Shown: piece after piece, positions 34,389 through 54,308 of the stretch
Layout: each line of letters opens with the position of its first letter
How positions within the stretch are numbered: position 1 is the first letter of the stretch
IMG/VR virus record: IMGVR_UViG_3300018080_000113
Span: 97-64,096 of that record
DNA length: 64,000 nucleotides
Strand: one strand, 5' to 3'
Source of the DNA: a virus
Lineage: Duplodnaviria; Heunggongvirae; Uroviricota; Caudoviricetes
Made by a program: the position numbers and the translations under genes
The notes under the pieces: model-generated
Told to the model about the DNA's origin: nothing
Databases searched by the model: none
The model's input: the letters and a program-made list of their open reading frames with translations, nothing else

Positions 34389-34829
34389 TTACATCATACC
34401 AGAACCTGGAGGTGCATATGCAGCTCCTTTGGCAACTAATTCGTTAGCAACACTAACAGCTTCAAACTTGCCGCCCTCTAGTTCTTGAAGGCGTCTAGTA
34501 ACAAGAGCAACACCATTGTTTACAGTTGTGCCTTGATAAAATACAATTGCTTCCCATCGTTCTTGGTCTCCGCCAGTCATATTACTAGGCGTTCCATATA
34601 GTTGAGATAATTGGTCTTCTGTTCCAATAATAGGAATAGGACCTGTCTTCCCAACAACTTGGCCTGCTCCATCAAGAAGATCCATAAAGAAGACATATAG
34701 TCCTTTGTGAGATTCTTTAAGAACAGCACGAGCATTCTTAAACCTGCTAACATCTATATGGTCTAGCTTGCTACCAACTCTATTAAGATGAGCACCAAGT
34801 GAACTATGTCCTCCAAATTCTCTACTCAT
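34389..34829 (-). CDS. Hypothetical protein (146 aa), candidate spike OB-fold part
   Basis: Directly follows the hub gene; beta-rich. Confidence 0.35.
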   Translation of the reverse strand: MSREFGGHSSLGAHLNRVGSKLDHIDVSRFKNARAVLKESHKGLYVFFMDLLDGAGQVVGKTGPIPIIGTEDQLSQLYGTPSNMTGGDQERWEAIVFYQGTTVNNGVALVTRRLQELEGGKFEAVSVANELVAKGAAYAPPGSGMM

Positions 34830-37800
34830 TTGGGTTTGCCTCCTTTAATCCACCTGTTGCATCTGCGCCGAAGAATTCATAGAAGCCAGCAGCCATATCA
34901 ACACGAGCATTAAACATTGCTTCAGAAAGATCAAATTTTCTCCAAGCACTTCCAAGATCATCCCAGTATTGATTCCATTTGCCAAACAGACTAAAGAACA
35001 AAGATGTTTTGTTAGATCCAAGAGTATTGCTAATAAATGGTTTTCCACCAAGCGTTAATGGTGTTGCCACTACTGGAGCGCCTTCTTGTGTCCACGTCAT
35101 AAACTTTACACCAGCAGCAAGGCCCAAGTGGCTAATGCCTTTAAGTGCAGTCCAAGCAGGATTTGGAGTAAGAACATCTCCCCATGTAAAAGACATGGCA
35201 GACGAGGTAATATCAAATACAGTAGCAGTGTAATAATCATTAACCTCTAGGCACAGATCTGGAGTAATGATAGAAACAAATCCATTGTCACGATTAAAGA
35301 TATGAGTAACAGATTCTACTTCAATAGGACCTGTCATATTAATAGAACTATCGTTCAAATAACAAACATCATATGGCTTCAGTTTCTCGTCTCCAACAAT
35401 ACATAACTCGCCTTTGTATGAGTCTCTTAGTGTTCTGGCAAATAGGCCCTGCGCATAGCGTTTAGCCATATCGCTTGTAACACAAGAAGGATACTCTGCT
35501 CTATACGAACGAATAGAAGAGTCAGGAATATTCTCATCAAGACGTAATGCCAAAAATCCTGCTTCTCCACGTGCAACTTCTGCTATGTTCTCTGCAGTGT
35601 CGTCTGCATCTGGATCAGTGATAGTATTTTCACTCTCACTATAGTTAAGTTCGATTTCATTGTATGTGCCATCAACCGATGTTCTAATCTCATTGTATAA
35701 AATATGATGGAAGCTATCGAAATAATGATAGTTTCTAAATGGCACATAGCGACCAAACAATTCACCTAAACTAAAACCAACATCAAATCTTGAGCCAATA
35801 GTCATGATGTCATTAAACAAGGCAGAGCCAAATTCTGGACTCTTCTCGACAAACTTAACAAGTTCATTAACCATTCCATTATGCAACAAATTAAGCCCCT
35901 CTTTACGAATCTTTATGATGTCATTTTTTGCACTTCTTGAAAGCTGAACTTCAAGAGCACTAGGAGGCTTGCTCCAGTAATGCTGAACCTTATTGCCAAA
36001 GAACATAGTCATTCTAGGTTCGTGTCCATATGGTACGGCCGAAGAAATATATCCGGGGTGACGGAGTTCGTGTTCTTTAAAGATCTCCCAAGAGGTTTGT
36101 TTTAGAGGTCTGTAAATGCATGCATTGTTCCAAAACTTTGTCCAGGTAGACGCATATGAATCAGGAGGCGGAGCATAGATATTGTCATCTTGTTGGAAGT
36201 TCTTAAATTGATATTGATTAAAAACAGATTCAAGTCCTCTTGTAGACCATTCTTGTAGAATGTTAGTAGGACTCAAATCGGAAATAAGATTTGTGCCTCT
36301 TCCTCCGGTCCATGCATGTCTTGCAGCTGCAGGATTGTCCATTGCAAATCTATCCTGTCTACCAAAGTTGACAATAGACGGATGGATTGTTGAGCCCGAA
36401 AGAACCTCTTGTGAGGACATAAAATACGGGCCGTTTTCAAGAGGACCGAACTCTACAGATTCTAGCTCTGCCCCATACCCTTGACATGCAATTTCAATAA
36501 TCTTGCCTTTTTCTGCTAAAGACATCTCAACAACCTGACCAAGGAAAACACTTTCAAGGTTGTCTTGGTTTGCTGCATACCCTAAACGAATTTGAACTTT
36601 AACTCCATCTTGAAGGATCATTTTTTCGAACGGGTGTTCTCTTTCGGTATCTGCAAAAATACCTTGCTTCTCTGCATTCTTTCCGTACTTGGTGTGGCTT
36701 TTGTCACTTTCGCCAAAACGTCTACGTAATAAAAGACCACCAACATTTGTCATTCTAATAATTGCCATGTCTGCTGCAATTTTTCTAGAACGTGTAATCT
36801 TAATTTCTTGAATAGCAGAGTAGCTATAGAAATCATCAAACGCCCTTACGACTCCGCCTTCAACAAGTTCAGTCTCGGTGCTATCGTCTTCAATAAAAAA
36901 TATTTTAAAGGTAGGATATGCACGACGCATTGAAAGATCATTTTGTTTCTTTCCTAAAGAAACCCTAGATGCAGCCTGTGCCATTTGGTCAAATTCTTTA
37001 TCCTTCTTAATCTTCGAGAAAACATGATCATATTTGGCAGCTGCCATATCAATACCAGCGCTAGTAGCTCTTTCAAATTGTTTTTCAAATTGTTTTTCAA
37101 AAAACTTAGTAAATGCGCCAAAAACTCCTCCTGTAGCTACACCTCCAGCAATTCTACCAGCATCACTACTTTTCGCTTCGTCTATTTCTTCTTTAACGGC
37201 TGCTTCTTTCTCTGCTTTTGTTTCTCCAAAAGTCACAGCTCCGTCAGGAGTAACAGTTATTTCTCCAGGCAATACCTCAGTCGGAAAAGTGGTATCAGCA
37301 GCTTTTTGTTTAGCGGCCTCAATATCATCTGCAAGTTTTTGTGTAGATGGTTCTGTAAGTTTTCCAGACATGGCATCATCAACAGAAGCATATAAAGGAT
37401 TAGGGCCAAATACTAATGCTTCTTCCGCACCTTTGTACATTGCTTTTATAAGATTACTATTGTCTCTTTCGGTAATAGGGCTGTCCCAATTACGACCATT
37501 ACGAACATAAGCAGGCATTTTTAAAAGATTATTTAGATATGTCTTACGCTGGTCGGTTGGAGTCCCATCTCCAAGATTTGCCGAAACAGCACTTTGCCAC
37601 TTTTGAACACCGGCAATAGCAGGGTCTTGTTTGTCTTTTCGAGTATAAAGAGGTTCCCATGATTTTGCTCCATTTGTATAAAAATCCCAATAAGAAGAAA
37701 CATTACGTTCTCCCTCAGACCGTTCATGTTCTGAAGCTCGTTGTTCAAGTATACGAGGTAAGTTTTTAGACAGATACGAGCCACCAAGAAAACATTTGTC

Positions 37801-40800
37801 TATATATCTTTCAATAGATGCATATTCTGTTTCAGCATGACGACGTAAAAACTTTTCCATATTCTTATCGTCAGTCATACTAGAAACTAAAGGATCTTCA
37901 TGTGAATCGTCATAGACATAGAATTCTGGAGGAAGAGGGACTATAGTACCAGGAACACTTGGAAGGTCAATGTCTTTGTAACATGATGATATGTCTCCAG
38001 AAATAACATTCTTAATACCATCTGTAACACCTGGAAAGAACTCATCCATAACTTGACTGTCGGCCATGTGCTTATAAAATTCACGAACAAGAATCTCCAT
38101 CCTAGAAAGCCAAGCGTCAAATAAGTTTTTATGGAGCCTGTTTGTTTCAGGACTCCCATTGTGTTCAAACTTACCGTTGTATTCATCATTACGGCCTTTG
38201 GCCAAATCTGCAATGTCTTTAGCTGCATTGTCCATAGGTCCATAATAATCATACAGATGAGCTGCATTTCTTTCGTTGGAAGCAATTCTCGTATAGTCAC
38301 CAGTAAATATATTTCCTGCACCCCAAACTTTATAAATATCTCTCCAAGTCTGCCCTGTCTTTTTGTGTATTTTCCAGCTAATAGGAGGCATCTTGTCATC
38401 TGTTTCTCTACATATCTTAGCTGCCTCTGCAATCATTTTACCAACCCACAGTGGAGTATTGCCAATTAGCCTGTGTGGCCTGCCAGTATCAGACGCATTC
38501 ATACGAACAATAGAATTGTCTGCATGGATTATGTTTATTGTTTGATTCCCAGTACGATTAACATCTTTCTTGCGTACGGTTTTTACATATTGAAGAATAG
38601 ACTTGATAATTTTTTGTTTATCACCAAGAGTTGTGGCCATCTTTTGTTCGTACTTTTCTTCAGCAAACTCTTGATTAATAAATTCAATAACCAACTGATG
38701 CTTATCTGCTCCATCTGGTGAGTTAGATTCTTGAATATCAGAAATAACAATATTATCAATACCAGCTAATGCCATGATTGTGTTTTGTTCGCCAGTACCA
38801 AAATGAGTATGCTCAAGACCAATAGAGCCAACACTTTTAATTATGGAAGTAAATGTTCTTGCGTTGTCACGAGCCTTCCAAATAAGTTGTTTGATTATAG
38901 CAGCAGACCTACGGCCTTCTGCACCAGCAAAGGTCAAAACAATTTGACCACTTTTATTGCCTGCGCCGAGAAACTGATAGCTATAGAATGGCTGGCTTAA
39001 CAAAGGCATAGGTGCAATCCTGTGTCCAAAGTTAACAGACACAGCAGAACACACAATGTTCTTAAGGGCCTGCCCTGATCTTTGTACATCTGGATCGCTG
39101 GAGACATTAATTTCTATATCTCTATAAAATACGTTTTTTACTTTTGGATCATCGTAATAATAATGAACTTTATGTTGCTTCTCAATACTTTCAATCCATT
39201 CTATTCTTGCCTGAAGAGACTTTGTTCCTTTATCTAGTTTCTTTTGTTCTTGAACTTTTTTCTCTGGATTGGTTTTTCCTTCAGCCAAATCTTGTTTCTT
39301 TTGGATTAACTCTGCGACAGTGCCTTGTTGCTTGGCAACATCTTTTGTTTGTTTCTTTCTGTCTTCTTTTGTTCCAAAATCACTTTCAATTTCATCAACA
39401 TCAGATGCTATCTCACCAGAAATATGATCTCCAGAAAGAGCATAATGATCATTCAGGTATTTGTTTAAGGATGATCGACTACCTGTCTTGATAAGATAAT
39501 TAGATTTTTCTCCTTTACCAGACGCATCAACCCAGAACGTACTTGTTGGCCTAGCGTCCATATGACAAAACACAGAATTAGGATAATAGCCAGCTCCAAC
39601 ACGAGGAAGTCTTTTTATAAATTCAAATAGATCTCTATTTGGAATGCCTCTAACACGAAAGTCCATTGCTGTGCCTAGAATGTGATTGCTAGGTTTTTTC
39701 TTAGGACGCGAAAGACCTTTCTTTACCCAATTTGGATCTCTCTGTGTGGAAATAATTTCAATTGTTCTTCCAGGATAATTATTTGCTACAGCGGCAACAA
39801 GCTTAATAAGATCAACAGAAAGAAACACAGGCTCGTTAGCAGTCAGTTTTCTTCTGTCTGCAAACTTTGTAAGCTGCCATCTTGTTTCAGTAGGAACGTT
39901 TCCATTCTCATCAAGAAGAGGAATGGTTAGTTTTCCACCAGAAACATTGGTAAAGTTTATTGGTCGAGTTGGATCTGTATTTTGTGAGAACTCTACAAGC
40001 TCATCAGCACGTCTTTCAGAAGCAGTAGTGCCAGAAGGAGTGCGTCTGGTTGCTTCGTTTGCTTTGTCAGCAAGAGCTTCTTTCCATGCCTTCGCTTGAT
40101 ACAGAGGATGAATTTCTGTATATCTAGAATTCATAAGACCAACAAGCGTACCTTTATTTTCTGCTTGTCTGTCCTCTGGAGGCTGGAACGAAAAGAACTC
40201 TCGCAGCCTAAAACCAATATAGTCTGAAGGCTCACCGGCAATTGGTTTGCTTTGTCTCTCTAAGTGATTGGCAAAATACATCCAAGCATCAGAAGCAGAA
40301 GGAAAATTAACAGGAAGGTTTTCTTTCTTTGATTTGGTTAGGTTTTTAATACCATCTCTAACTTGTTGAGATGTACGTTCAGCAATCTTAGATATAGTGT
40401 AATCAGATGCCTCGTAACCACCAAATTCAGATAGGTTAACTTGTGATATTTCTGAAAATGATTTGTGTTCTGGTTCTTCGGTAAACCCAGGAAGTCTAGC
40501 GTTATAATAAAAATGATTACTAAAAGGCTTGTAATTGAAATAGTGCAACTGCATATCCAATACAATTAGGCCGACAGTCCCTGTTGTGCTTCGAAGTGTT
40601 GCTGCTTCAAGAACAAAAATAGTAGTATCCGACTCGCCAAGATCAAGTTTTTGTTTTATGTCATTGTTATATACAAATATAAATGGATGTTTTGAAGCCT
40701 CAGCGACAAGTCTTTTAAGTTTGTTGGCCTGAGCTTCTCCAGGAGGAAACGACAAACTAAGACGTAAAATAAGATCTTGTCTTCCTTCAGAATCAATAAC

Positions 40801-41166
40801 TGGAGCTTGAGAACGAACTGTTTCTCCAACAAACACATCTGCTGCTGCTTCAATAGAAATGGCAGCAGTAGGAACACCAGTAAGAACAATATCATTAAGA
40901 ATTAAATAACTATCTGGAAACATAGAGAGGCTTGTAGAGGAAAAAACAGACTTGGCGCTAGTTAAAGAAGTTTCTATTTGATCTCTATATTGAGTGTTAT
41001 TAGTGCCGTCTGGTAGACTAGGATCAGATACTCCATTCGCAAAATCATCTTGAAGCTGCTGTTCGATTGGATCACTACGCCCAAAGGACTCAAACTGTTC
41101 GTCTGGATAGCGCTTAACAGGATCTTGTTCTTGAGTAAACCCAGTCTTATTTCCATAGTTTATCAT
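34822..41166 (-). CDS. Baseplate hub-like mega-protein (2114 aa) with an internal M15 (YcbK/MepK-like) Zn peptidase
   Basis: H495-x6-D502 (SNHILGTAMDFRV) and H535-x-D537 (GAGYYPNSVFCHMDAR). The C-terminal DGVKVQIRLGY...VFLGQVVEM...IEIACQGYG is a gp27/gpD hub-type pattern. Confidence 0.7.
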   Translation of the reverse strand: MINYGNKTGFTQEQDPVKRYPDEQFESFGRSDPIEQQLQDDFANGVSDPSLPDGTNNTQYRDQIETSLTSAKSVFSSTSLSMFPDSYLILNDIVLTGVPTAAISIEAAADVFVGETVRSQAPVIDSEGRQDLILRLSLSFPPGEAQANKLKRLVAEASKHPFIFVYNNDIKQKLDLGESDTTIFVLEAATLRSTTGTVGLIVLDMQLHYFNYKPFSNHFYYNARLPGFTEEPEHKSFSEISQVNLSEFGGYEASDYTISKIAERTSQQVRDGIKNLTKSKKENLPVNFPSASDAWMYFANHLERQSKPIAGEPSDYIGFRLREFFSFQPPEDRQAENKGTLVGLMNSRYTEIHPLYQAKAWKEALADKANEATRRTPSGTTASERRADELVEFSQNTDPTRPINFTNVSGGKLTIPLLDENGNVPTETRWQLTKFADRRKLTANEPVFLSVDLIKLVAAVANNYPGRTIEIISTQRDPNWVKKGLSRPKKKPSNHILGTAMDFRVRGIPNRDLFEFIKRLPRVGAGYYPNSVFCHMDARPTSTFWVDASGKGEKSNYLIKTGSRSSLNKYLNDHYALSGDHISGEIASDVDEIESDFGTKEDRKKQTKDVAKQQGTVAELIQKKQDLAEGKTNPEKKVQEQKKLDKGTKSLQARIEWIESIEKQHKVHYYYDDPKVKNVFYRDIEINVSSDPDVQRSGQALKNIVCSAVSVNFGHRIAPMPLLSQPFYSYQFLGAGNKSGQIVLTFAGAEGRRSAAIIKQLIWKARDNARTFTSIIKSVGSIGLEHTHFGTGEQNTIMALAGIDNIVISDIQESNSPDGADKHQLVIEFINQEFAEEKYEQKMATTLGDKQKIIKSILQYVKTVRKKDVNRTGNQTINIIHADNSIVRMNASDTGRPHRLIGNTPLWVGKMIAEAAKICRETDDKMPPISWKIHKKTGQTWRDIYKVWGAGNIFTGDYTRIASNERNAAHLYDYYGPMDNAAKDIADLAKGRNDEYNGKFEHNGSPETNRLHKNLFDAWLSRMEILVREFYKHMADSQVMDEFFPGVTDGIKNVISGDISSCYKDIDLPSVPGTIVPLPPEFYVYDDSHEDPLVSSMTDDKNMEKFLRRHAETEYASIERYIDKCFLGGSYLSKNLPRILEQRASEHERSEGERNVSSYWDFYTNGAKSWEPLYTRKDKQDPAIAGVQKWQSAVSANLGDGTPTDQRKTYLNNLLKMPAYVRNGRNWDSPITERDNSNLIKAMYKGAEEALVFGPNPLYASVDDAMSGKLTEPSTQKLADDIEAAKQKAADTTFPTEVLPGEITVTPDGAVTFGETKAEKEAAVKEEIDEAKSSDAGRIAGGVATGGVFGAFTKFFEKQFEKQFERATSAGIDMAAAKYDHVFSKIKKDKEFDQMAQAASRVSLGKKQNDLSMRRAYPTFKIFFIEDDSTETELVEGGVVRAFDDFYSYSAIQEIKITRSRKIAADMAIIRMTNVGGLLLRRRFGESDKSHTKYGKNAEKQGIFADTEREHPFEKMILQDGVKVQIRLGYAANQDNLESVFLGQVVEMSLAEKGKIIEIACQGYGAELESVEFGPLENGPYFMSSQEVLSGSTIHPSIVNFGRQDRFAMDNPAAARHAWTGGRGTNLISDLSPTNILQEWSTRGLESVFNQYQFKNFQQDDNIYAPPPDSYASTWTKFWNNACIYRPLKQTSWEIFKEHELRHPGYISSAVPYGHEPRMTMFFGNKVQHYWSKPPSALEVQLSRSAKNDIIKIRKEGLNLLHNGMVNELVKFVEKSPEFGSALFNDIMTIGSRFDVGFSLGELFGRYVPFRNYHYFDSFHHILYNEIRTSVDGTYNEIELNYSESENTITDPDADDTAENIAEVARGEAGFLALRLDENIPDSSIRSYRAEYPSCVTSDMAKRYAQGLFARTLRDSYKGELCIVGDEKLKPYDVCYLNDSSINMTGPIEVESVTHIFNRDNGFVSIITPDLCLEVNDYYTATVFDITSSAMSFTWGDVLTPNPAWTALKGISHLGLAAGVKFMTWTQEGAPVVATPLTLGGKPFISNTLGSNKTSLFFSLFGKWNQYWDDLGSAWRKFDLSEAMFNARVDMAAGFYEFFGADATGGLKEANPNE

Positions 41167-41169
41167 GTG

Positions 41170-44100
41170 TTACAGCCTCTCATGAATCTTATTGGCAAGT
41201 GATCGAGGATCAAGAATAGACCTATCGTCTTTTGTTTTGATGTTTACTTGTCCTCCACTAGAAAGTTGACGGGCACTTCTCATAAAGTCTCTAGATGAAG
41301 AATTTAAGTCATTAGTACGCATTCTTATATTAGCATGAGATGTCTTGTTTCCGCTACCTATGTCATAAACACGAGGAGCATTGTTCATTCCAGGACTCGG
41401 AGGATTCATTCCAGGACCACTTGGAGCACCATAGTCATCAGGCATCATTCCTCTGCCAGCACTAGTTCCTTCTGGCGTACTCCCAATAGAACCAGAAACA
41501 CCTGGGGCCATCAACATAACGCCACCTGCAACCCCTAGACCAGCAAGCAATGGTTTCTTTGCACGAGAAATAGCACCAAACATTCCTTTAGCACGAGCAG
41601 TTCCTCTTCGCATTAGTCTTGATGTTTTAGCAGTAAATGAATCCATATTTTCAGCATTAGCCTGCATAAGAGCTTGTGCAAAATCAACAGAGCCAGTTCT
41701 ACGAGCATGATACATCTCGACAGCTTGATTCAAAGATATATCTCCAAGATTCTTTCCTCTTGCAGCTGAAACAGCTCTCATTGAAACATCTACATCATGA
41801 CTAACAGCATCATATGATGCAATTGCTGTCTCTGCCCATTGGCGGGGATTGTAGGCCAAACTATGTTTTCTTGTAATACCAAAAGAATCTGTGATAGTAC
41901 CTGTAATTGTTCTTTTCTCTTCTCCCATTATTGCACCAAGCACGCCTTCCATGCGCCTGATGCCACTTTCTCCACCTTCACTTACTGATTGTGCAATAGC
42001 CTGATACAAGTCTCCACTAAGAACACCATGCTTACCGCCAATTGCTGCTTCTTCAAGATGCCAAAACATTTCAGCCAATGGCCTGTATTCGTCAGGTGCA
42101 TTAGCAGCAACACCAATCTTTAATTTTTGTAAAGCAATATTTACTTTGCCTGTGGCTGTTTTAGCAGTAGAAAGTTTTCTAAATCCTTGTTGCAAGGCAT
42201 CGTCAGAAAGCATATTGACAGCAGTACTCTTACTAACTTTACCTTCAATAGTATCTTTCATTGTATAATGATTGAATAGATATTTAGAGTAAGCTTCTCG
42301 TTGTGCATTGTTCATTGAACGACGAGCCATACTGTTTGTGCGTTCGTCTGAAATAGCAGAAAGAACAAACTGATCACGGTCAAAGTCCCCTTTGAAACCA
42401 ACCATAGCAGAGACATCAACGGGAATATTTTTATCTTGGAATTGTAATTTACCAAATTGCGTTGGAGCTGCAACCATTCCATTAGCAATACGGGCATCCT
42501 TCTTGAACTTTACAAACTGGAAAGACTCAGGTCCTGATGTTGGATGTCTCCACATTCCACCAGTCATTATTTTTTCTTCTCTAAAGGCAGCCCTCTGCTG
42601 TTCTAAGAATTTAACTTGTTTGTCTGTTTCGGAACGAGAGATAAGATCACCAAACATTGTTTCTCCTGCTTCACTTGAAACACGAAAAACATCTGCGTCA
42701 TCAGCAAAATCCATTCTTACGCCTGTAAGCATTTGAGACCCAATAATTTTTCCTCTAGCAGCTGCCTGTGCCTCAGCAGTCTGAAGAGCTAGACCTCTTA
42801 GAGAGGAAGCTGCCAATTCAATTTCATCATTAGAAGCTTTGCCTCTACGAATCAATGATTGAAAAGAAGCAATATTGCTTGCTAGAGGAGAGCGCACCCT
42901 TTCTCCTTTAGCAATAATATCTCCAACCATTTTTTCAGATTTGTTTGTGCCAGGAATATACATTACGTTTGATCCGCCAAAAGCACCAACACTACGACCA
43001 AGATTAACAAATCTACCTTCTGACTGAACAAGATTTTCAGGAGCAATTTTAGCAAAGTCTTCTAAAGAAGAAACATCTCTACCGAACTTTTTAGCAATGC
43101 CTTCTTGTCCAAGCAAAGTAGACATCATTATGTCTGCCTCTGCTAGCTCTCCTTTGCCTGATATTCGTTTAGATAATTCTACTGCATATCTTTGACCAGC
43201 TTCGCCTTTCATAGACAAGGCTCTAAATCCAGTTTGTTCAAAGCTTCCCCAACTTCCTGCTCCACCTTCTGTTGCAATATCTCCAAGCATTCCTTTGCTA
43301 AGACCAATAACGCCGGTCGATCCTCTTACTGCTGCGCGTTGTCTTGCTGTAAGAATACCTCCGCTAATTGCTGCTTCGTCTGCAAGTCCGAATGTAAGAG
43401 CCAGCTCTGGAGACTTAAATCCCCATCCTCTTGCCATACCCATTAGATTCTTTTGAATCTGTACGTCGGCAGTTGCTCCGCTACGTTGCATAATACCAGC
43501 AACATCAAGTGCAGCTGCTGGATCATTCAAGAATGATTGAATTTCAGGTGTCATTTGTAAACGGCCCATATCAAGTTTTTGACCAAGGAACATAGACATG
43601 GCTTCTGTTTGCTGTGTGATAAGAGCCATCTTGTTACGACCAACTAATTTGCCAGAAAATACAGCCTCCACTTGCTGGCCAGCAATTGTGCCTTGTGTCC
43701 CCGCCGCCTCAAGAATACTAGCCATTCTACGTTCGTTAGCTGCTGCAGCCATAAATTTATTTTCTTCTGAGAAGAACTTCCACATTTCATTCTCTCCGAG
43801 ACGTTTAGTTTCACGCATAAAGACACTAGCAGTATTTGCTCCTGTTAATTCTGCTCCTACGATATCACCAATAACCTCTCGTCCTGTTCCTTTCTCTATC
43901 CCCATAAATCCAGAAGGAAGAACGCCTTCAAGTGTTAAAGCGCCAGAACCAACCTTTTTGCCTTTAAGCTGGCCTGCAAGACCTTCATTAATACGCATGC
44001 CTTCATCTAATGTAATATTCTTTTGAACAATACGCTCATATTCCATCATGTCTGTAACACCAGAAGAAATAACTCCTTCTTCCCCAGACATCATCCTGTT

Positions 44101-45555
44101 AAGAGCTGAAGACTGATATCCAAGCCCATATCCTTTGGTTGATGGTTTTGCATAAAATGTCATAAGTTGCGGAGCACTATATGCTTCTGCCGCAGAAGAG
44201 TACGCTCCTCCATACAGCAAAGACTTGTAACTTTCACCTTGTATTTTGCGATCAAGCCTACTGTAATGTTGGCCAAATGTTCTGCCAAAGCCACGTGCTC
44301 TGCCTTTTGCCTCTGCAGTTACTCCCCATTCTCCACGTACAAACTGTGTAGGTCTTTGCTCTGCTGACACTAAGCCGCCAAGAGGACCAAACAATTCTTC
44401 ACTTATATTTCTAGTTGTTAAAGTTCCTTTGCCAGCCGCCGAAGGTGAAGTGTAAGGATACAGGCGAGCTTCTTGGCCAATAAGCTCCAATGTACGTTCT
44501 GGACTAATATCTCCATAAGCAACAGCTTCAAGGTTTGTAAGTCTAGCCTTGGCAGCCCCTCCAGAAGTTGTAAATGGAGCTATATATATAGCAGCTGCAC
44601 GGTGAGCAGCATCCCTATTGTTCATTTCTGCAATAAGGTTTTTATGTGCATTAAGCATATTTTGCTTAAGCTCTCTATTAGTACTAGAAGCACTAATAAC
44701 ATCACTGATTATTTCTTCTTGCAACGAAGCAAAACCAAGTGTACCTCCACCTTTGTTGTAAGCTCCACGAGTAACATAGCGATTAGTAAAGTCAGTGCCG
44801 CCGTAAGTATATCCGGTGTTGGCCAAAGGAATTTCACCAAGGCGTGTCTTCCCAACACTACCAATAAGCATTGGTGTGCTTACTTTTCGACCGCTAATTA
44901 CATCATCAATAATCCTGTAGTTCCACTTGACATTAAACTTACCTTTAGCAGCAGCAGAAATATTTTCCTGAATTGCCAAGGCTCTTTCTTGTGCACTAGC
45001 AGGAAGATTAGCAAAAGACGTATTTTCAGCAAAGACAGTGCCTAGTCCTCCTTCAGACAAGCTAACACCAGCAAGACCAACATCTCTGCTGCCAAATTCA
45101 CGAAGCCTAGATGCAAACAGAGAACCACGACCACCCGTCTGGCCAACAATATCAACTGCTGCCCTGTATACACCCGCGCCACTTGTCTGTTCTCCAAGAA
45201 CACCAAGAGCTTTCATAGCTTCTTCGTGTGTACTTTTCCCTCCTGCCATTATTGCTTCATATGCAGCTGTACGAACATTACCAATAGCACCAGGCATACC
45301 TGAACGACGCTCTATTGTGCTAGCAAGAGCCTGTAAGGTTTCGTCTGCGACTGCAGAGTCTATGGCCATTGAAGAAACATGGAATCCAGGAATACTAGCT
45401 CTGTTTTGTAACATTTCTGAAGCTACATCTCTATTGCCTAATTGCCATGCACTTGCAAAGGATCGTTTGTGTGTTGCGAATGCATATCCAGCTCCGCCTA
45501 AAACAGCCCCTCCTGCTGCCATGCCCCATAAAGATGATCGTTCATTGTCGCGCAT
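41170..45555 (-). CDS. Candidate single-chain two-barrel (DPBB) RNA polymerase, probably virion-associated (1461 aa)
   Basis: Motifs in canonical order: beta-like GEEG (E492/E493), K593...NK600, GQQVEAVF...R; beta'-like GK(935-936)...S, R1003-HPT...Q, D1057-F-D-R-D1061, bridge-helix-like STAKTATG, trigger-loop-like EEAAIGGKH1176. Confidence 0.65.
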   Translation of the reverse strand: MRDNERSSLWGMAAGGAVLGGAGYAFATHKRSFASAWQLGNRDVASEMLQNRASIPGFHVSSMAIDSAVADETLQALASTIERRSGMPGAIGNVRTAAYEAIMAGGKSTHEEAMKALGVLGEQTSGAGVYRAAVDIVGQTGGRGSLFASRLREFGSRDVGLAGVSLSEGGLGTVFAENTSFANLPASAQERALAIQENISAAAKGKFNVKWNYRIIDDVISGRKVSTPMLIGSVGKTRLGEIPLANTGYTYGGTDFTNRYVTRGAYNKGGGTLGFASLQEEIISDVISASSTNRELKQNMLNAHKNLIAEMNNRDAAHRAAAIYIAPFTTSGGAAKARLTNLEAVAYGDISPERTLELIGQEARLYPYTSPSAAGKGTLTTRNISEELFGPLGGLVSAEQRPTQFVRGEWGVTAEAKGRARGFGRTFGQHYSRLDRKIQGESYKSLLYGGAYSSAAEAYSAPQLMTFYAKPSTKGYGLGYQSSALNRMMSGEEGVISSGVTDMMEYERIVQKNITLDEGMRINEGLAGQLKGKKVGSGALTLEGVLPSGFMGIEKGTGREVIGDIVGAELTGANTASVFMRETKRLGENEMWKFFSEENKFMAAAANERRMASILEAAGTQGTIAGQQVEAVFSGKLVGRNKMALITQQTEAMSMFLGQKLDMGRLQMTPEIQSFLNDPAAALDVAGIMQRSGATADVQIQKNLMGMARGWGFKSPELALTFGLADEAAISGGILTARQRAAVRGSTGVIGLSKGMLGDIATEGGAGSWGSFEQTGFRALSMKGEAGQRYAVELSKRISGKGELAEADIMMSTLLGQEGIAKKFGRDVSSLEDFAKIAPENLVQSEGRFVNLGRSVGAFGGSNVMYIPGTNKSEKMVGDIIAKGERVRSPLASNIASFQSLIRRGKASNDEIELAASSLRGLALQTAEAQAAARGKIIGSQMLTGVRMDFADDADVFRVSSEAGETMFGDLISRSETDKQVKFLEQQRAAFREEKIMTGGMWRHPTSGPESFQFVKFKKDARIANGMVAAPTQFGKLQFQDKNIPVDVSAMVGFKGDFDRDQFVLSAISDERTNSMARRSMNNAQREAYSKYLFNHYTMKDTIEGKVSKSTAVNMLSDDALQQGFRKLSTAKTATGKVNIALQKLKIGVAANAPDEYRPLAEMFWHLEEAAIGGKHGVLSGDLYQAIAQSVSEGGESGIRRMEGVLGAIMGEEKRTITGTITDSFGITRKHSLAYNPRQWAETAIASYDAVSHDVDVSMRAVSAARGKNLGDISLNQAVEMYHARRTGSVDFAQALMQANAENMDSFTAKTSRLMRRGTARAKGMFGAISRAKKPLLAGLGVAGGVMLMAPGVSGSIGSTPEGTSAGRGMMPDDYGAPSGPGMNPPSPGMNNAPRVYDIGSGNKTSHANIRMRTNDLNSSSRDFMRSARQLSSGGQVNIKTKDDRSILDPRSLANKIHERL

Positions 45556-45557
45556 TG

Positions 45558-48500
45558 TTAAACTCCCATTTGTCTATAGGCACTTTCAATCATTTGTTTT
45601 CTTCCGTCTTGTATCTGAACATTATACTTGTCATTCTGAAGGTCTGCTTCTATTTGAGATATATATACTTCTGCTTTATGTTGAGAATACATACCGGCAA
45701 GGCTCTTAGAGTTCTGGGCTACTTTCCATGAATCTTCATAACGAGCAGCATCTTCCATTTCTCCAATAAGACTAGGATTGATATATGGCTTTCTGGCTAG
45801 AGCACGTTTTCGTTGGCCCCATAAATCAAAGTCATGATGATCAAGACCGGCCTGTTCTACATATTGTAGTTTAACATCTTCTAAGTCTACAGACGGGCTA
45901 TTATGGTATATTCCAATTGGAGAACAATACATATGATTTTGTTCTACTTCAAAATCGAATACAGTTCCTTGGTATTCTGTTTCTTCTATATCTTTAATAC
46001 GATAAGCAATAAAGTTACTACCAACAAATGCAGATAAAGACTTTCTTAAAGGCTCTACAACATATTGATCTTTCCTGTTCTCTATTTTCTTAGGGCCATG
46101 TAAACTAGCAGGGATACCTTGAGCTTCATAGAGTCTTTTAGCCATGGCGCACAATCCTCTATTTGTTAAAGCAAGCCTATTGCGATGGTCTTTTGAAGCG
46201 TCTCCTGTATTAAGTCCATCTAGTAATGCTACTTGGCTATTATAAGTTATATCTTGAAGCCAAGATGGTGCAAATTTTTTATCACAAAATCTTCCCACCC
46301 AATAGTCAATAAGCAATCCAAATATACTACTTGCAACTTGCAGATAAGCACTCTTTGATTTTGGATTCTTCTTATAACGAATTTCACTATTAAGACCAAA
46401 GTGCTCTTTGATAATTTTTTGTGCTAATTCTAAGATTGAAACTTCATTAACATTAGCAGTAAACTGAACTCCACGCATCCTATCCCCAACTGCCCATACA
46501 TTGCCTTCTGCAAGGTAATAACCAATCAACCAGCAGACAGATTCATTCAATGTAATGAAACGATTAACTGGTTTAATCCTTCCGCTTTTAGGTCTAAGAC
46601 AATCATCAGAAACTATTGTATTTTTTGGGAAGCAATCTAGAGATCCAATATCTATAGTAGGATCTGTATCTGCGTGTTTTAATAATGGAATTGGCAAATA
46701 GATGTCTGTTGTAACTTCTCCTATTGGCATCCAACGAGCAGAATAAGACTGATAATATTTTGTTGTACAGAACTGACATTTCCAAGAATTACTTTCATGA
46801 GTACAAACTGAATTAGGAGTCAAATTATATTTACATGGTTTTGTTTCAATGCCTAGAACTAAATGATTATTAGTTGCACTCATACAATAAACACTATTAT
46901 GACAAACTGTTAGAGTCCTAATTGCTTCTTTAATTTCTCTCTTGAATACTTCTTTCACAATGTTTTCTCCTTGTAAAGTAACCACTTTATCTCCTGGTTT
47001 TATATCACAAGCATGTGAAAAAGTATAGTCTGATATTAAAACTTCTTGGTTTGCAGGCAGACACCAGCCCAGCCAGTCTGCTCCTGGTAACGAATGGCTA
47101 CCAAAATACTCAGCAGCTTTTTGTTCTCGAAGCCAATCATCAAATTCTACTTGACCACTAGTTTCATTTTGCCATTGTTCTTCTTGGTCTGGAGTATATG
47201 AAAACCCTTCACTTCTTCGCATGAGCGCCGCTGTGGCAATGACCTTATCATCTTGATTTGTATCTACTTTAGCTGAACGTTTAGCATATGCAGCACTTTC
47301 TTCTTGTCTCATCCATTGAGACAGATAGACTCTCTTCTCGTTCTCAGGAATCAATTGAAGAATTTGTGCTCGTTCTTCTTCTGTTTTAGCATCAGAGAAT
47401 TCTCCAAAGAAATCTCTTTCTCTGCGAGGCAGTGCCCTCATTATATTGACAGGACTTTTAAATACATCCATGCCGAATAAAGTTTTTTCTTTAGTGCTTC
47501 GGTATCTAGCAGCAGCAGACAGATCTCCCATCTGACGAGCTTTAGCTTCGTTACGAGAAGCTTTGACCCACTTAAGCATATCGAAATGTTCTTGAATGTC
47601 TCGACGTTCTTGTATCTCATCTGGTATATCAGTAGATCCTGCTTTGTAGGCGGCTATATTAAGAGCTGGCTTTAAGAAGTTTTGAATAGGCTTGTCCCAA
47701 AAAGAAGAACTAGTTCCTATTGCTTCTGATGCAACATATTCTTCAATTGCAGAACGCTGGCGTATTAGCTTAGACACAGGAGCCATAGGAGTTAGGTATT
47801 CAATAGGAGACTCAATGCCATGCAGAACATATTCGGACAATTTACCAGCAAGCTGTTCATTGTCACTAAATCTTACTTGTTTAAATTCATCTTCTAAATC
47901 TTTTTGTGTTGCCAAGCCTTCTTCAGCTAATAACTGACCAAAGTCCACTCCACCAACAACAGGGACAGCTTTCATTACAGGGCCTGTCGAACTCATTCTG
48001 ATTCTACGAGACTCAAGAGTAGGAGTTTTAAGCTCAACTGTTTTGCCAATAAGTGTTTCTTGTGCAAACTGCAACGCAGCAGCAGTGTCTTTGATTGCAC
48101 CAATACCCTGGACATCAACAGCCATCTCGCCAAATTCTTTTGTCATAATTCTTTTAGGACTAATAACTCCAGTTACAGTTGCATCGTAAGACTCAAGCTG
48201 ATTGCCAGAGAAAACGTAATCCTGAAAGCCTCTACGTTTCTTTCTTTCCTTTACCTGTTTCTCAGTCTCTTGAACCATGGCTACTTCTTGTTGTGTCATA
48301 TTATTCATATTGCGTTTAGCATGTGCCAAAGCAATACGATATTCACTACTCCACATAGCAACGTCACCAAGGATTTTTACCTTGTGAGCAAGAGGATATT
48401 CCTCTGCACTAAGACCAGATACTTCTGGATGCAAAGCAGCATATCCTTCTCCTGGGAGCCTAAGTTCTGCTTCTGGAACCTTTTGAAATGGATTGCCAGT

Positions 48501-50894
48501 ACGTAAATCTAAGAAATAATCTTCAGGCATCCATGATGGCATAGCATTTCTTAAAGGGTTATATTCGTCAAGATAACTTCTGGTACGAGGAAGAAAACGC
48601 CTAACAGCTTCAGTAGTTCCTGCTCCACCACCAAGATTCATATGTTTCCATAGCCAATATTCTGAGCCTGTCTCTTTGCCCATTGCCCCAAGAGTTTGTT
48701 TGTTCTGTAGAAACTCTTCTCTGCCAATAGCAGCTTTAGTAAGAGCACCCTCAACAAAACCCATAAGACCTACAGCTTCACGACGCTTATAGTTTAGTTC
48801 GTTTAGTAGCTGAGAAGCATCTTCTTTAGCAACTGGAGCACCAGGTCCTAATCCACCTAGTGCATATGATGGCTCTGTTTCTCCTCTTATATCAGGATGA
48901 TGAACATACATTCCGCCACCAAGGTTCCATTCTTCTTCACGAACTAACTTACGAGGTTTAAACAATTTGCCAAAAGTAGAAGCAACTAAAGGTCCAATAA
49001 ATGGAATCTCTTCGCCATATGTACCAGTGGTAGGAGCTGGACGTTCATATTGATACTTCTTCTCGTAATGATACTTCCAGTCATCAGAACCAAACAGTGC
49101 CTTCATAGGGTTGAGCAATGGGTCATATTCCCATTTCTCTTCTTCTGTTCCATACATGCCTTTTTGATAGGCTCTACTTTTTAGTCTAGCTAACATATGA
49201 GGTCTGTAATAATCTACACGGCCGCCTTCAAAAGCAGTGCTTCTTCCGAATTCCCACCATCTACCTTTGCGTATCGCTACCTCTTTACGTCCAGAATATA
49301 TATCTTGTAATTCTTCAGGAGTCTCTTCGCTTCCTAATATACCAGCAACAGGAGCCATTGGATTACCAGACAACAAACCAAGACTACCAGCAATTCCTGC
49401 CCATGCAGTTATGCCACCAAGGAGCCCTAAAGCCATGGGGCTTTTGATTTTGGTTAATGCTCGGCCACCAGGAAGTTTACCAATTTCTTTACCAATCTTA
49501 GACTTCCATATCTTGTCAGATAAACGAGATGCGCTTCTTTCTCTAACAGATTCAAAAGTTGCATACAGGGGAGTTTTTGTTCCAATTTTCTCTTTGACAG
49601 ACTCTCCCATAAAATAAGCATAGCTACCAAGACCAGCTATAAGAGCACCAGTACCACCAAACCCCAAAGCAGTCTTAACGTCCATAAAACCAGGAGTTAT
49701 TTGCTCTTGTTCTCTGATAGTGTCTGTGAAGCCCATTGACTGAGAAAGTTGAGCTTTAGCAACACTAGCATCTGCTCCAATAGAAGCAGCACCATAAAAC
49801 AAACCTTCGTCAAACCTAGGAGACAAAGAAGTAGCTAAACCAACAGCTGCACCGGCTATCATTCCTGCCTTAGAAAACTTCATTCCAGGCTGACGTGCCA
49901 ATAATGCTCCTGTTCCTGCTCCACCAACTGTTGCTAAGACTCCTGCCCAAGGACTTCCTTCAGAACGAAGATAGTCTGTATACTCTAAACCTTTCCATGC
50001 AGCGCCAACAAGCATACCTTTTACAGCATACCTTTGTAACAGTTCTAAACTACTCCCAGGCTTAACGGCCAAGGTTCTCATTCCAGGAATCTTCTCCGCA
50101 ATGTTTTTGATACCAGGAAGCTCTACAGGGGCTCTCAAAAGAATATTAAGACGACTGGCCGTTGATGCTGCTTTAGCACGAAGCAATTTACCCAGCGTTT
50201 CTGCCTTAGCAACATTTTTGGCCATCGACTCAGACAAGTTTATATCTTGTCCTGCAATGCGTATCTTTTCTCTAATCTTAGAGCCGACAATCATTCTTTG
50301 ACGACGTAGGTGCGGCTCGATAGTTTTAAGCCAGTCTTGATATGGCAAAGGTGACTTTGATGTTTGCCACTTGTTACGAAGAATTGCATCGTTTAAAGAT
50401 TCAAACTTACCAAGTTGGATTCCTTCTGCACGAGCTGCAAAGTCTACAATTGCTGCACCCTTTTGGGTACCGGATTCAATTTGTAAACCCATACCAAGAA
50501 TCTTGCCAGAAGCATCACGAACCTCTCCAAAAACCTGTCCTGTTCTATGTAAGTTGTATGAACCAGATTGGCCAAATGACGACTCTATAAACTTACCGTA
50601 TTTGCCATGAGCAATATCTTGAGCAGAAGTAGCAACAGTACCCCAGCTTGCCAAAGGAGAAAGAAATTCTGACATACGAAATGTACGCAGAACACCACCA
50701 GGAGATCCAGCTTCAATTGCACGAATACCAGAAAGATATTTATCCCATATGCGTCCGTTCGCAGTTGGAATAAACCCTGCACCTATTGCACCTGCTGTAC
50801 CGAGTGAAAGACCGAGTAGATTGCCTTGGTTTTCAGAATAACCCTGACCAGGCATACTTGGTTGAGGGCCATATGCGAGGTTAGGATTAATCAA
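45558..50894 (-). CDS. Tape-measure-like protein (1778-aa precursor, about 1390 aa after splicing) with TM-like segments, a degenerate SNase-like domain and an intein; TTG start
   Basis: Follows the tube and chaperone genes; several Gly/Ala hydrophobic helices; GGAGG precedes the TTG at 50894. Confidence 0.65.
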   Translation of the reverse strand: MINPNLAYGPQPSMPGQGYSENQGNLLGLSLGTAGAIGAGFIPTANGRIWDKYLSGIRAIEAGSPGGVLRTFRMSEFLSPLASWGTVATSAQDIAHGKYGKFIESSFGQSGSYNLHRTGQVFGEVRDASGKILGMGLQIESGTQKGAAIVDFAARAEGIQLGKFESLNDAILRNKWQTSKSPLPYQDWLKTIEPHLRRQRMIVGSKIREKIRIAGQDINLSESMAKNVAKAETLGKLLRAKAASTASRLNILLRAPVELPGIKNIAEKIPGMRTLAVKPGSSLELLQRYAVKGMLVGAAWKGLEYTDYLRSEGSPWAGVLATVGGAGTGALLARQPGMKFSKAGMIAGAAVGLATSLSPRFDEGLFYGAASIGADASVAKAQLSQSMGFTDTIREQEQITPGFMDVKTALGFGGTGALIAGLGSYAYFMGESVKEKIGTKTPLYATFESVRERSASRLSDKIWKSKIGKEIGKLPGGRALTKIKSPMALGLLGGITAWAGIAGSLGLLSGNPMAPVAGILGSEETPEELQDIYSGRKEVAIRKGRWWEFGRSTAFEGGRVDYYRPHMLARLKSRAYQKGMYGTEEEKWEYDPLLNPMKALFGSDDWKYHYEKKYQYERPAPTTGTYGEEIPFIGPLVASTFGKLFKPRKLVREEEWNLGGGMYVHHPDIRGETEPSYALGGLGPGAPVAKEDASQLLNELNYKRREAVGLMGFVEGALTKAAIGREEFLQNKQTLGAMGKETGSEYWLWKHMNLGGGAGTTEAVRRFLPRTRSYLDEYNPLRNAMPSWMPEDYFLDLRTGNPFQKVPEAELRLPGEGYAALHPEVSGLSAEEYPLAHKVKILGDVAMWSSEYRIALAHAKRNMNNMTQQEVAMVQETEKQVKERKKRRGFQDYVFSGNQLESYDATVTGVISPKRIMTKEFGEMAVDVQGIGAIKDTAAALQFAQETLIGKTVELKTPTLESRRIRMSSTGPVMKAVPVVGGVDFGQLLAEEGLATQKDLEDEFKQVRFSDNEQLAGKLSEYVLHGIESPIEYLTPMAPVSKLIRQRSAIEEYVASEAIGTSSSFWDKPIQNFLKPALNIAAYKAGSTDIPDEIQERRDIQEHFDMLKWVKASRNEAKARQMGDLSAAARYRSTKEKTLFGMDVFKSPVNIMRALPRRERDFFGEFSDAKTEEERAQILQLIPENEKRVYLSQWMRQEESAAYAKRSAKVDTNQDDKVIATAALMRRSEGFSYTPDQEEQWQNETSGQVEFDDWLREQKAAEYFGSHSLPGADWLGWCLPANQEVLISDYTFSHACDIKPGDKVVTLQGENIVKEVFKREIKEAIRTLTVCHNSVYCMSATNNHLVLGIETKPCKYNLTPNSVCTHESNSWKCQFCTTKYYQSYSARWMPIGEVTTDIYLPIPLLKHADTDPTIDIGSLDCFPKNTIVSDDCLRPKSGRIKPVNRFITLNESVCWLIGYYLAEGNVWAVGDRMRGVQFTANVNEVSILELAQKIIKEHFGLNSEIRYKKNPKSKSAYLQVASSIFGLLIDYWVGRFCDKKFAPSWLQDITYNSQVALLDGLNTGDASKDHRNRLALTNRGLCAMAKRLYEAQGIPASLHGPKKIENRKDQYVVEPLRKSLSAFVGSNFIAYRIKDIEETEYQGTVFDFEVEQNHMYCSPIGIYHNSPSVDLEDVKLQYVEQAGLDHHDFDLWGQRKRALARKPYINPSLIGEMEDAARYEDSWKVAQNSKSLAGMYSQHKAEVYISQIEADLQNDKYNVQIQDGRKQMIESAYRQMGV
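45900..47063 (-). mobile_element. Intein with LAGLIDADG homing endonuclease (388 aa, residues 1278-1665)
   Basis: Starts CLPANQEV, ends VFDFEVEQNHMYCSPIGIYHN, +1 residue Ser. LAGLIDADG-like helices WLIGYYLAEG and ALLDGLNTGDA. Confidence 0.93.
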
Positions 50895-52395: not shown

Positions 52396-53316
52396 TTATA
52401 CGAGGTTTCTTGCGATAAAATTATATTGCTCGTAGACGGGCTGACCTGAAATCTCAATGCTTTGAGATTGCCCTGTGAATGAAAGATCAAGAATTTTCTT
52501 GACCGTATGATTAGCGGGGTGATGTGACATATCTCCATAAACAATCCACATGTCAATTTGTGGATACTGATCTACACGTCTATGTCGTAATACATTTTCA
52601 TTTGTAATTTGAGTTTTCTTATCAATATTTTTAGAAAACAATTTATCTCTTACTGTAGGATTGCTAATATCAGATCCATACCAAATAGCATCTTCAAATA
52701 CTTCTGCCCAGTCTTCAAATGCATTATCAGGAAGAGCCCCAAGTTCTCTCCAGAATTGATTGTACTGTCTGTTCTGTCTATTCTGGTTTGCTGTCTCTTC
52801 CCATCCAAGCATCTGTTCTACATTTGCTTCCATCACTTGTTTTCTTCTGGCAGCTTTAGATGCAGCAGCTAGACTGTAGCCAGATTCTTGTGGATTGTAC
52901 GAGTTTATTATTTTGCCCTGAGAATCAACAGAATATCTAGGAGAGCTAGATAACTGGGATCGGAATAACGACAAGGCTTCATCGTTTCCTGCTGCAGTTA
53001 TTGAGTTAACAATTCCAGCCTTTTCTTGAAACCTTTGCATTGGCCACAAGAGATATCCTGCTTCTTTAAAAGCTACAGTTAAAGTACCTTGTACAATAAC
53101 ATGGCCATCAGCAACAAAAGTATAATATTGATTTGCATATCCGTAGATTGGAGTTTTTGTTTGTTCGACATTAAAACTAAGAGCAACAGCACTATCAATT
53201 AAAACATCACCAATCATGACTCCAATTTGCGAACCAGAGAACCAGTCGTATTCATATGCAAATGAACCGATTCCGTGTGGATGCAAAAAGTTTCCTTGGT
53301 TATCTCTAAGTGCCAT
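52396..53316 (-). CDS. Tail-tube-fold paralog 3 (306 aa), probable tube/baseplate junction protein
   Basis: FSGSQIGVMIG...LSFNVEQTKTPIYGYA...GHVIVQGTL aligns with the tube motif. Confidence 0.65.
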   Translation of the reverse strand: MALRDNQGNFLHPHGIGSFAYEYDWFSGSQIGVMIGDVLIDSAVALSFNVEQTKTPIYGYANQYYTFVADGHVIVQGTLTVAFKEAGYLLWPMQRFQEKAGIVNSITAAGNDEALSLFRSQLSSSPRYSVDSQGKIINSYNPQESGYSLAAASKAARRKQVMEANVEQMLGWEETANQNRQNRQYNQFWRELGALPDNAFEDWAEVFEDAIWYGSDISNPTVRDKLFSKNIDKKTQITNENVLRHRRVDQYPQIDMWIVYGDMSHHPANHTVKKILDLSFTGQSQSIEISGQPVYEQYNFIARNLV

Positions 53317-54233: not shown

Positions 54234-54242
54234 GTTCTCCTT

Positions 54243-54288
54243 AGAAGAGAGGAGGGAAGACAGGGTTAAGGATTATTCCCTAACCCTG
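54243..54288 (-). terminator. Hairpin terminator-like structure after the tube gene
   Basis: On the minus strand CAGGGTTAGGGA-ATAA-TCCTTAACCCTG forms a 12-bp stem (one G-U) at 54261-54288, followed by a pyrimidine-rich rather than pure-U tail. Confidence 0.55.
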
Positions 54289-54308
54289 CTTAATAGACAA
54301 TTAACAAA

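Follow-up and report, generated by a model that had tools for sequence, protein, structure and literature searches.

A predicted one-chain RNA polymerase with two barrels in the tape-measure slot of a contractile-tailed phage

INTRODUCTION

A phage that delivers an RNA polymerase (RNAP) with its virion can begin transcription independently of the host enzyme; such polymerases influence host takeover and DNA entry as well as resistance to rifampicin. Two-barrel virion RNAPs have so far been described in three settings: the crAss-like podophages, the phiKZ-like jumbo phages, where the enzyme is multisubunit, and one family of Thermus siphophages, where it is fused to the tape measure. In the last setting, gp96 of phage P23-45 (also of P74-26, G20c and TSP4) is a tape-measure-fused two-barrel virion RNAP of known structure (PDB 8H2M/8H2N). 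The enzyme was shown to be active, and it is proposed to work in pre-early transcription at the pore through which the DNA enters (Chaban et al. 2024, PMC10770324). Here we describe a gene, P0001, in a 64,000-nt stretch of the IMG/VR virus record IMGVR_UViG_3300018080_000113 (positions 97 to 64,096 of that record; hereafter the window). Its 1461-aa product is predicted to be a compact single-chain two-barrel RNAP, and it lies at the tape-measure position of a contractile-tailed phage.

Like gp96, P0001 combines a predicted single-chain two-barrel RNAP at the tape-measure position with an [RK]xP...DxDxD signature and predicted membrane segments in the same polypeptide, and neither protein has detectable sequence similarity to cellular RNAPs. 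Unlike gp96, P0001 belongs to a contractile-tailed lineage and not to a Thermus siphophage, and it is compact, being nearly all polymerase, whereas gp96 is fused to a 4000-aa ruler. There is no covalent fusion to a long ruler with a metallopeptidase; the M15 peptidase is found in a separate hub gene. No sequence kinship between P0001 and gp96 was recognised, and no paralogous non-virion RNAP was found in the relatives searched. A preliminary description of the window, made from the sequence alone, did not know this arrangement to be characterised; it had missed gp96, which is a direct conceptual precedent (PMC10770324), while our own search of a limited literature collection returned no paper describing the P0001 family.

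The position itself is shared with gp146 of Bacillus phage 0305phi8-36, together with a C-terminal module made of a transmembrane (TM) helix, a Gly/Pro-rich linker and a tail. GenBank labels gp146 a 'hypothetical tape measure protein; identified as virion protein by mass spectrometry', and Hardies et al., on the basis of tail length, took it to be the ruler, finding only its last ~60 residues conserved in relatives (PMC2147016). 0305phi8-36 instead carries a separate RNAP, orf99, in its right arm, which resembles YonO and the RNA-dependent RNA polymerases (RdRPs) (PMC2147016, PMC7824862). ME3_36 of Acinetobacter phage vB_AbaM_ME3 and gp034 of Bacillus phage vB_BauM_KLEB27-3 (hereafter KLEB27-3) resemble P0001 in their place in front of the hub gene, in the C-terminal module and in the RNAP signature; they are nevertheless very divergent from it (no BLAST-level similarity), longer, and deposited as 'hypothetical' and 'structural' proteins. 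A 2021 survey of jumbo phages placed ME3 in group 2.2 and counted its group among the phages without an RNAP of their own (PMC7824862).

Other two-barrel enzymes differ more in their setting. QDE-1, plant RDR2 and YonO are cellular or non-virion enzymes with other N- and C-terminal appendages; crAss-like phi14:2 gp66 is a 2180-aa podovirus protein; and the phiKZ and AR9 enzymes consist of several subunits, their beta and beta' chains being split and encoded outside the tail module, whereas P0001 holds both barrels in one open reading frame (ORF). P0001 also differs from a canonical tape measure protein (TMP), having no long helical ruler and resembling one only in its position and its C-terminal module.

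RESULTS

P0001 is predicted to contain both RNA polymerase barrels in a single chain

The preliminary description had quoted short motifs of both RNAP halves from this ORF. The ORF is real and intact, with an ATG start, and all the quoted motifs were found at the residues given: SGEEGVIS (490–497), K593 and K600 in the beta-like half, and RGKIIGS (934–940), R1003HPTSGPESFQ, D1057FDRD1061, LSTAKTATG (1128–1136) and EEAAIGGKH1176 in the beta'-like half.

We built an AlphaFold2 model of aa 440–1300 from a 54-sequence alignment (mean pLDDT 86.5, pTM 0.82). The model contains two double-psi beta-barrels (DPBBs) in one chain, the beta-like barrel (DPBB-B) first and the beta'-like barrel (DPBB-A) second. 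In the first barrel, K593 and K600 fall on neighbouring strands; R1003 is at the end of a strand, and DFDRD is in the loop preceding the last strand of the second barrel. After this barrel come a 35-residue helix (model residues 679–713) and a hairpin of two helices (715–733 and 742–754), whose low-confidence tip (loop 735–739, pLDDT <50) bears K1175 and H1176. These two elements are candidates for a bridge helix and a trigger loop, respectively.

A Foldseek search of the PDB returned only RNAP chains among its top 50 matches (best E 6e-4, probability 1.0), among them bacterial beta and beta', Rpb1, Pol III, vaccinia and phiKZ nvRNAP chains. When the model was compared with 48,161 representative chains by VIA-align, the top matches were QDE-1 and RDR2, both single-chain two-barrel enzymes, aligned over model residues 22–861; next came the largest subunits of Pol I/II/III on the C-terminal half and Pol I A135 on the N-terminal half. 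Both barrels were superposed on RDR2 and on QDE-1 at once, which gives indirect support to the predicted placement of the two lysines opposite the Asp triad. Proteins that have a DPBB only (the Cdc48 N domain and a designed DPBB) matched model residues ~500–640, that is the second barrel, and the alignment with archaeal A' stopped at the candidate bridge helix (model residue 715, chain residue 828). A search of BFVD gave further uncharacterised phage proteins and many viral RNAPs.

At the sequence level, hhalign of the DPBB-A sub-alignment against E. coli beta' gave one local alignment (query 4–143 to beta' 332–470, P 0.0025; cross-controls, P 0.37–0.52). This alignment pairs R1003...D1057–D1061 with beta' R425...D460–D464 and reproduces all four equivalences with beta' that had been proposed from inspection (GKRVDYS, LFKPFI, RAPTLHRLGIQ and ADFDGD). 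The same comparison of the bridge-helix/trigger-loop region with beta' was not significant.

For a second model, covering aa 30–470, Foldseek found nothing at E <0.001, and the VIA-align matches were limited to generic helical bundles and weak resemblances to beta subunits. Each of the two models is a globular alpha/beta structure and not a long helical ruler. Taken together, the model fold with its beta-then-beta' order, its structural neighbours and the DPBB-A alignment support the earlier reading of a single-chain two-barrel RNAP, and we consider it highly probable that P0001 is a polymerase of the two-barrel type whose active site looks functional.

The catalytic signature is conserved in a large, unannotated family

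We collected 54 metagenomic homologues of P0001 at 30–73% identity, and an exhaustive profile search extended the family to 187 clusters at 50% identity, all uncultured and nearly all 1430–1600 aa long. Conservation was counted over 162 aligned full-length members, some of them below 30% identity. R1003, D1057, D1059 and D1061 are present in 162/162; K593 is present in 160, K600 in 158 (with Arg in three more), Q648 in 159, E1168 in 158, K1175 in 160 and H1176 in 145 of the 162. In the 54 close homologues, the invariant positions are R1003, P1005, E1010, S1011, Q1013, D1057, D1059, D1061 and H1176. The preliminary description had named a lack of conservation among homologues as a ground for rejecting its reading; the conservation found, judged from this alignment, is far beyond chance, and the catalytic residues appear to be under strong purifying selection.

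The middle residues of the acidic loop, on the other hand, vary freely (DFDRD, DFDKD, DKDAD in a subgroup of 15 members, DYDGD and others). A DxDxD motif with free middle residues is the pattern expected of a metal-binding loop. The pattern [RK]xP-x(20-100)-DxDxD, which Chaban et al. used in their screen for two-barrel RNAPs (PMC10770324), is met throughout the family with spacings of 40–92 residues; in P0001, 54 residues separate R1003-H-P from D1057-F-D-R-D1061.

Scans of P0001 against Pfam (E 0.1 or better) and PHROGs gave no match, including to the RdRP domain PF05183 and to TMP domains, and the profile hidden Markov model (HMM) found nothing beyond noise among PDB sequences (a Polo kinase at E 2). 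No match to P0001 was found by tblastn in 50,697 GenBank phage records, nor any to a divergent family member, P0100, among GenBank phages. Large as it is, the family carries no annotation and escapes searches of Pfam, PHROGs and PDB sequences.

P0001 occupies the slot of a virion protein and shares its C-terminal module

P0001 starts 2 nt past the stop of the upstream 1778-aa gene P0003 and ends 3 nt before the start of P0002. In phmmer searches, P0003 matched 0305phi8-36 gp145 (6e-66) and ME3_35 (1e-62), and P0002 matched the 0305phi8-36 hub gp147 (4e-26) and ME3_37 (1e-23). P0001 is therefore in the slot of gp146, between the orthologues of gp145 and of the hub gp147, and its slot comes after sheath, tube and chaperone-like genes. 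The preliminary description had placed the polymerase between the tape measure and the hub, which depends on an unproven assignment of the upstream gene; that gene is the gp145 orthologue, and the 1461-aa gene is itself in the tape-measure slot. The same arrangement of genes (sheath, tube paralogues, two small genes, gp145-like gene, RNAP, hub, baseplate) recurs in a metagenomic relative of 46% identity and in the cultured phages.

The C-terminal module was searched for with an HMM of the last 137 residues of the family (TM helix, Gly/Pro-rich linker and tail) against 1479 six-frame fragments, which covered the whole 0305phi8-36 genome and the tail region of ME3. The best matches were gp146 (1.6e-8) and ME3_36 (7.6e-5), the next best scoring 0.095; KLEB27-3 gp034 was matched at 6.6e-8. 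The orthology of both the neighbours and the C-terminal module to 0305phi8-36 virion proteins verified by mass spectrometry (MS) backs the proposal that P0001 is likewise packaged in the virion and injected.

Two observations concern the slot in other phages. The gp146 protein (2537 aa; ORF146, L041:14624-22237) has no detectable similarity to the polymerase core, and it may be a degenerate or a never-polymerase version of the slot protein. In Moorella phage MTATph1 the slot gene is seemingly split by a transposase (L054:11513-18869): CDS0027 (1309 aa) is followed by the transposase CDS0028, two small ORFs and CDS0031 (313 aa), which carries the C-terminal module (HMM 1e-4).

Divergent counterparts are present in cultured phages

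ME3_36 is a 1603-aa protein with REP...DHDQD, which was matched by the HMM of the first barrel (DPBB-B) at 1.5e-8 and by the BFVD structural search at E 2.5e-8. KLEB27-3 gp034 (2434 aa; L055:13004-20308) lies directly before the hub gene and carries VNRYPTINQSTIQA...ADYDGD, a near-canonical beta'-type signature (VNRYPT...IQA...ADYDGD), with a DPBB-A HMM match of 5.9e-4. Comparison of the full family with gp146, ME3_36 and ORF65L of Microcystis phage MaMV-DC by hhalign produced only diffuse global alignments (P about 1e-3), which we did not use. A presumed second BFVD hit in ME3, a 798-aa protein, was set aside, as it has no acidic triad and no homologue in the present phage.

Further proteins with an RNAP signature were noticed on the way. 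MaMV-DC ORF65L (1677 aa, RTP...DADGD; L029:9225-14258) and ORF82L (3560 aa, RSP...DFDGD; L029:26653-37335) are both deposited as 'hypothetical' and lie outside the tail module; ORF65L has a BFVD structural match to the P0001 model at E 4e-5. The first segment of a very long tail protein, BFVD A0A8S5SD80_1 ('Minor tail protein [Siphoviridae sp. ctnpt50]'), matches the model at E 6e-7 and probably represents a further fusion of RNAP and tape measure like that of P23-45. Neither ME3 nor Microcystis is listed in the supplement of PMC10770324.

No second RNA polymerase was found in the source record or in two relatives

We searched two relatives, a complete one of 197,730 bp with a 127-bp terminal repeat and a 91%-complete one, and found in both no paralogue of the core, no multisubunit RNAP (PF00623) and no other large ORF with the RNAP signature. 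The source record of the window likewise has no PF00623 or PF00562 match, and sigma-70 region 2 was absent from all three records. A scan of the source record with PF00940 (T7-type) gave nothing, and it is uninformative since its control also gave no signal. The [RK]xP...DxDxD expression applied to all ORFs picked out P0001 and its orthologue, plus only unlikely short hits. A 650-aa protein with DYDGD (P0057) was rejected as an RNAP: the motif is part of an acidic low-complexity run and not a catalytic loop.

Organisation of the P0001 protein and of the tail module

The source record is 140,323 bp long, is estimated to be 73% complete and comes from a large uncultured phage. The window covers its late structural region, with all genes on the minus strand (Table 1). 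The cultured phages most similar to it in capsid and sheath are Acinetobacter phage vB_AbaM_ME3, Bacillus phages 0305phi8-36, KLEB27-3, Edson and WH1, and Moorella phage MTATph1.

Table 1. Features of the tail module and of P0001 (window coordinates; aa, residues of P0001 unless stated otherwise)
Feature	Position	Strand	Evidence or remarks
Major head protein	60888-62150	-	PHROG scan
Tail sheath	55009-56895	-	PHROG scan
Three tube-like paralogues, then two small genes	52396-54986 (paralogues)	-	PHROG scan
Three giant genes (1778, 1461 and 2114 aa), then gp25-like and gp6/J-like baseplate genes		-	PHROG order
P0003, 1778 aa, many hydrophobic segments, intein	45558..50894	-	Orthologue of 0305phi8-36 virion protein gp145
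P0001, 1461 aa, predicted single-chain two-barrel RNAP at tape-measure position	41170..45555	-	
aa 9-27, conserved Gly/Ala-rich hydrophobic segment, LWG..A..A..GG.GY	45475..45531	-	W10 >=90% in consensus
aa 72-160, small helical bundle	45076..45342	-	
aa 175-470, alpha/beta N-terminal domain	44146..45033	-	Weakly like N-terminal part of RNAP second-largest subunits
aa 463-640, beta-like DPBB-B	43636..44169	-	E492; K593 (43777-43779); K600 (43756-43758)
aa 641-930, inter-barrel connector, helices and two small sheets	42766..43635	-	Model secondary structure
aa 934-1068, beta'-like DPBB-A	42352..42756	-	Model, Foldseek, VIA-align, hhalign
DPBB-A motifs: RGKIIGS; R1003-H-P...Q1013; metal-binding loop D1057-F-D-R-D1061	42517-42549 (R1003-H-P...Q1013); 42373-42387 (loop)	-	
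aa 1118-1152, 35-residue helix, candidate bridge helix	42100..42204	-	T1135, Q1143, K1146 conserved
aa 1154-1193, helical hairpin, candidate trigger loop	41977..42096	-	E1168, I1172, K1175, H1176
aa 1194-1300, C-terminal domain of polymerase core	41656..41976	-	Model
aa 1335-1354, hydrophobic helix, predicted TM	41494..41553	-	Kyte-Doolittle mean 1.7 over 19 residues; kept in consensus
aa 1355-1461, Gly/Pro-rich linker and conserved tail (...DDRS...LANKIHERL)	41173..41493	-	
P0002, 2114 aa, baseplate hub with M15 peptidase domain	34822..41166	-	PF05951 3.5e-10, PHROG 20474

Within P0001, the polymerase core spans roughly aa 175–1300 and is followed by ~160 residues that hold the TM helix, the linker and the tail. 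The N-terminal hydrophobic segment, whose hydropathy is under the strict TM threshold, is possibly membrane-active. By analogy with the clamp elements described in PMC10770324, the connector between the barrels may correspond to the one that forms the clamp in other single-chain RNAPs.

Several features of the surrounding genome were also recorded. The intein of P0003 lies at ~aa 1300–1665 and has a LAGLIDADG-like domain (weak Pfam matches to PF14890 and PF14528); the gp145-like gene of the 46%-identical relative is 1386 aa long and has no intein. In P0002, the M15 (DUF882/YcbK-like) peptidase is embedded at aa 400–540, and the C-terminal regions are common to the hubs of 0305phi8-36 and ME3. 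The tube-like paralogues match phrog_9206, whose label 'major head protein' looks misannotated in view of their position after the sheath; 0305phi8-36 likewise carries tube paralogues at that position. Outside the window, the source genome has a tmRNA-like gene with the tag peptide GEDYYPMQAAA* (ARAGORN; L002:5064-5436, ~97.06–97.44 kb of the genome) and 24 tRNA genes at ~111 to 139 kb.

DISCUSSION

For P0001 we have computed how the chain folds, how well its active site is conserved, its synteny and the homology of its C-terminal module, and from these we infer its packaging, ejection, tethering, DNA-dependent RNA synthesis and early role. The explanation that we favour, and hold to be probable on the sequence comparisons and the model, is that P0001 is a catalytically intact-looking single-chain RNAP at the tape-measure slot, which is built into the virion and transcribes early.

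We propose the following course of events. The protein would be carried in the virion, in or with the tail-lumen proteins, its C-terminal module targeting it to the tail interior or to the hub. Upon contraction, P0001 would be expelled through the tube along with the gp145-like protein, while the M15 peptidase of the hub opens the cell wall. The hydrophobic ends would then anchor P0001 in the inner membrane near the DNA entry site with the polymerase facing the cytoplasm, where it would transcribe the first phage genes on the entering DNA without the host RNAP, as proposed for P23-45 gp96; this transcription may also help to pull the DNA in. We regard this delivery scenario in full as somewhat better than an even prospect. 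A wider version of it, in which a family of at least 187 RNAP clusters has replaced, or colonised, the protein of the tape-measure slot in large 0305phi8-36-like myophages and acts as a tail-stored, tube-fired, membrane-tethered transcribing motor of DNA import, is tentative, and we would put it slightly below an even chance.

Several points weigh against the proposal. The MS-verified gp146 has no D-x-D-x-D anywhere, so that what it shares with P0001 is the targeting module and not a recognisable active site. No phage-specific promoter motif emerged from two passes of k-mer enrichment over the intergenic DNA of the source genome and of the complete relative, which gave tRNA motifs or nothing convincing. 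A globular enzyme of ~1100 residues would have to be stored, or to pass through the tail tube, in an unfolded or elongated form. The best structural matches, QDE-1 and RDR2, are RNA-dependent enzymes, and specificity cannot be read from sequence. Finally, hhalign of DPBB-B with E. coli beta was not significant at the residue level, so that the equivalences which the preliminary description had drawn for the beta half stand at the level of the domain, from the fold, and not residue by residue.

If P0001 were mainly a structural protein of the tail lumen, ejected in the manner of a tape measure, its polymerase fold would be an exapted scaffold in which catalysis is dispensable or lost. Such a role would fit the gp146 slot, assigned to the ruler by tail length (PMC2147016), the absence of the acidic triad from gp146, the strikingly constant length of the family (1430–1600 aa) and the hydrophobic segments at both ends of P0001. 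A scaffold would, however, not be expected to keep R1003, the Asp triad, both lysines and K1175/H1176 nearly invariant in 162 members down to identities below 30%, and the chain is predicted to be globular and not a long helical ruler. We consider this unlikely.

It is also quite unlikely, in our judgement, that P0001 is an active RNAP which is made late, is not packaged and acts within the cell that makes it, perhaps in transcribing late genes or priming replication, so that its place in the tail operon is incidental. As the search of the relatives turned up neither a second phage RNAP nor a sigma factor, a phage RNAP might indeed be needed late too. Against this, even very divergent phages keep the gene between two orthologues of virion proteins and tightly coupled to them, the C-terminal module is common to an MS-verified virion protein, and KLEB27-3 gp034 was deposited as a 'structural protein'. 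Moreover, the known phage RNAPs encoded among late structural genes (N4, crAss-like, P23-45) are all virion enzymes (PMC10770324).

A two-barrel polymerase of another chemistry, either an RdRP like QDE-1 and RDR2 or, on the model of archaeal PolD, a DNA polymerase or primase, would have a role other than early mRNA synthesis. Its main attraction is that QDE-1 and RDR2 are the top matches over the whole model, with template specificity being unreadable from sequence; yet the tested members of the phage clade, YonO, crAss gp66 and P23-45 gp96 and gp64, are DNA-dependent RNAPs (PMC10770324), PolD was not among the listed VIA-align matches, and an RdRP has no known use in a double-stranded DNA phage, as argued by Hardies et al. 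(PMC2147016). We therefore rate this as improbable. A chance resemblance of motifs in a protein unrelated to RNAPs, for which the missing Pfam, PHROG and PDB-sequence matches and an hhalign P of merely 0.0025 might be cited, is effectively refuted by the high-confidence model, the RNAP-only structural neighbours in three libraries and the invariant signature residues.

What would be new in the favoured reading of P0001, as a virion-delivered RNAP, is that a compact polymerase made of one chain sits in the tail module of large contractile-tailed phages, whose lineage is widespread and mostly uncultured. This bears on how an enzyme of ~160 kDa passes through a tail tube, and since ME3 and KLEB27-3 carry counterparts, the idea is directly testable. 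If the wider version is true, early transcription independent of the host RNAP would be a common strategy of contractile-tailed phages, ME3 and KLEB27-3 included.

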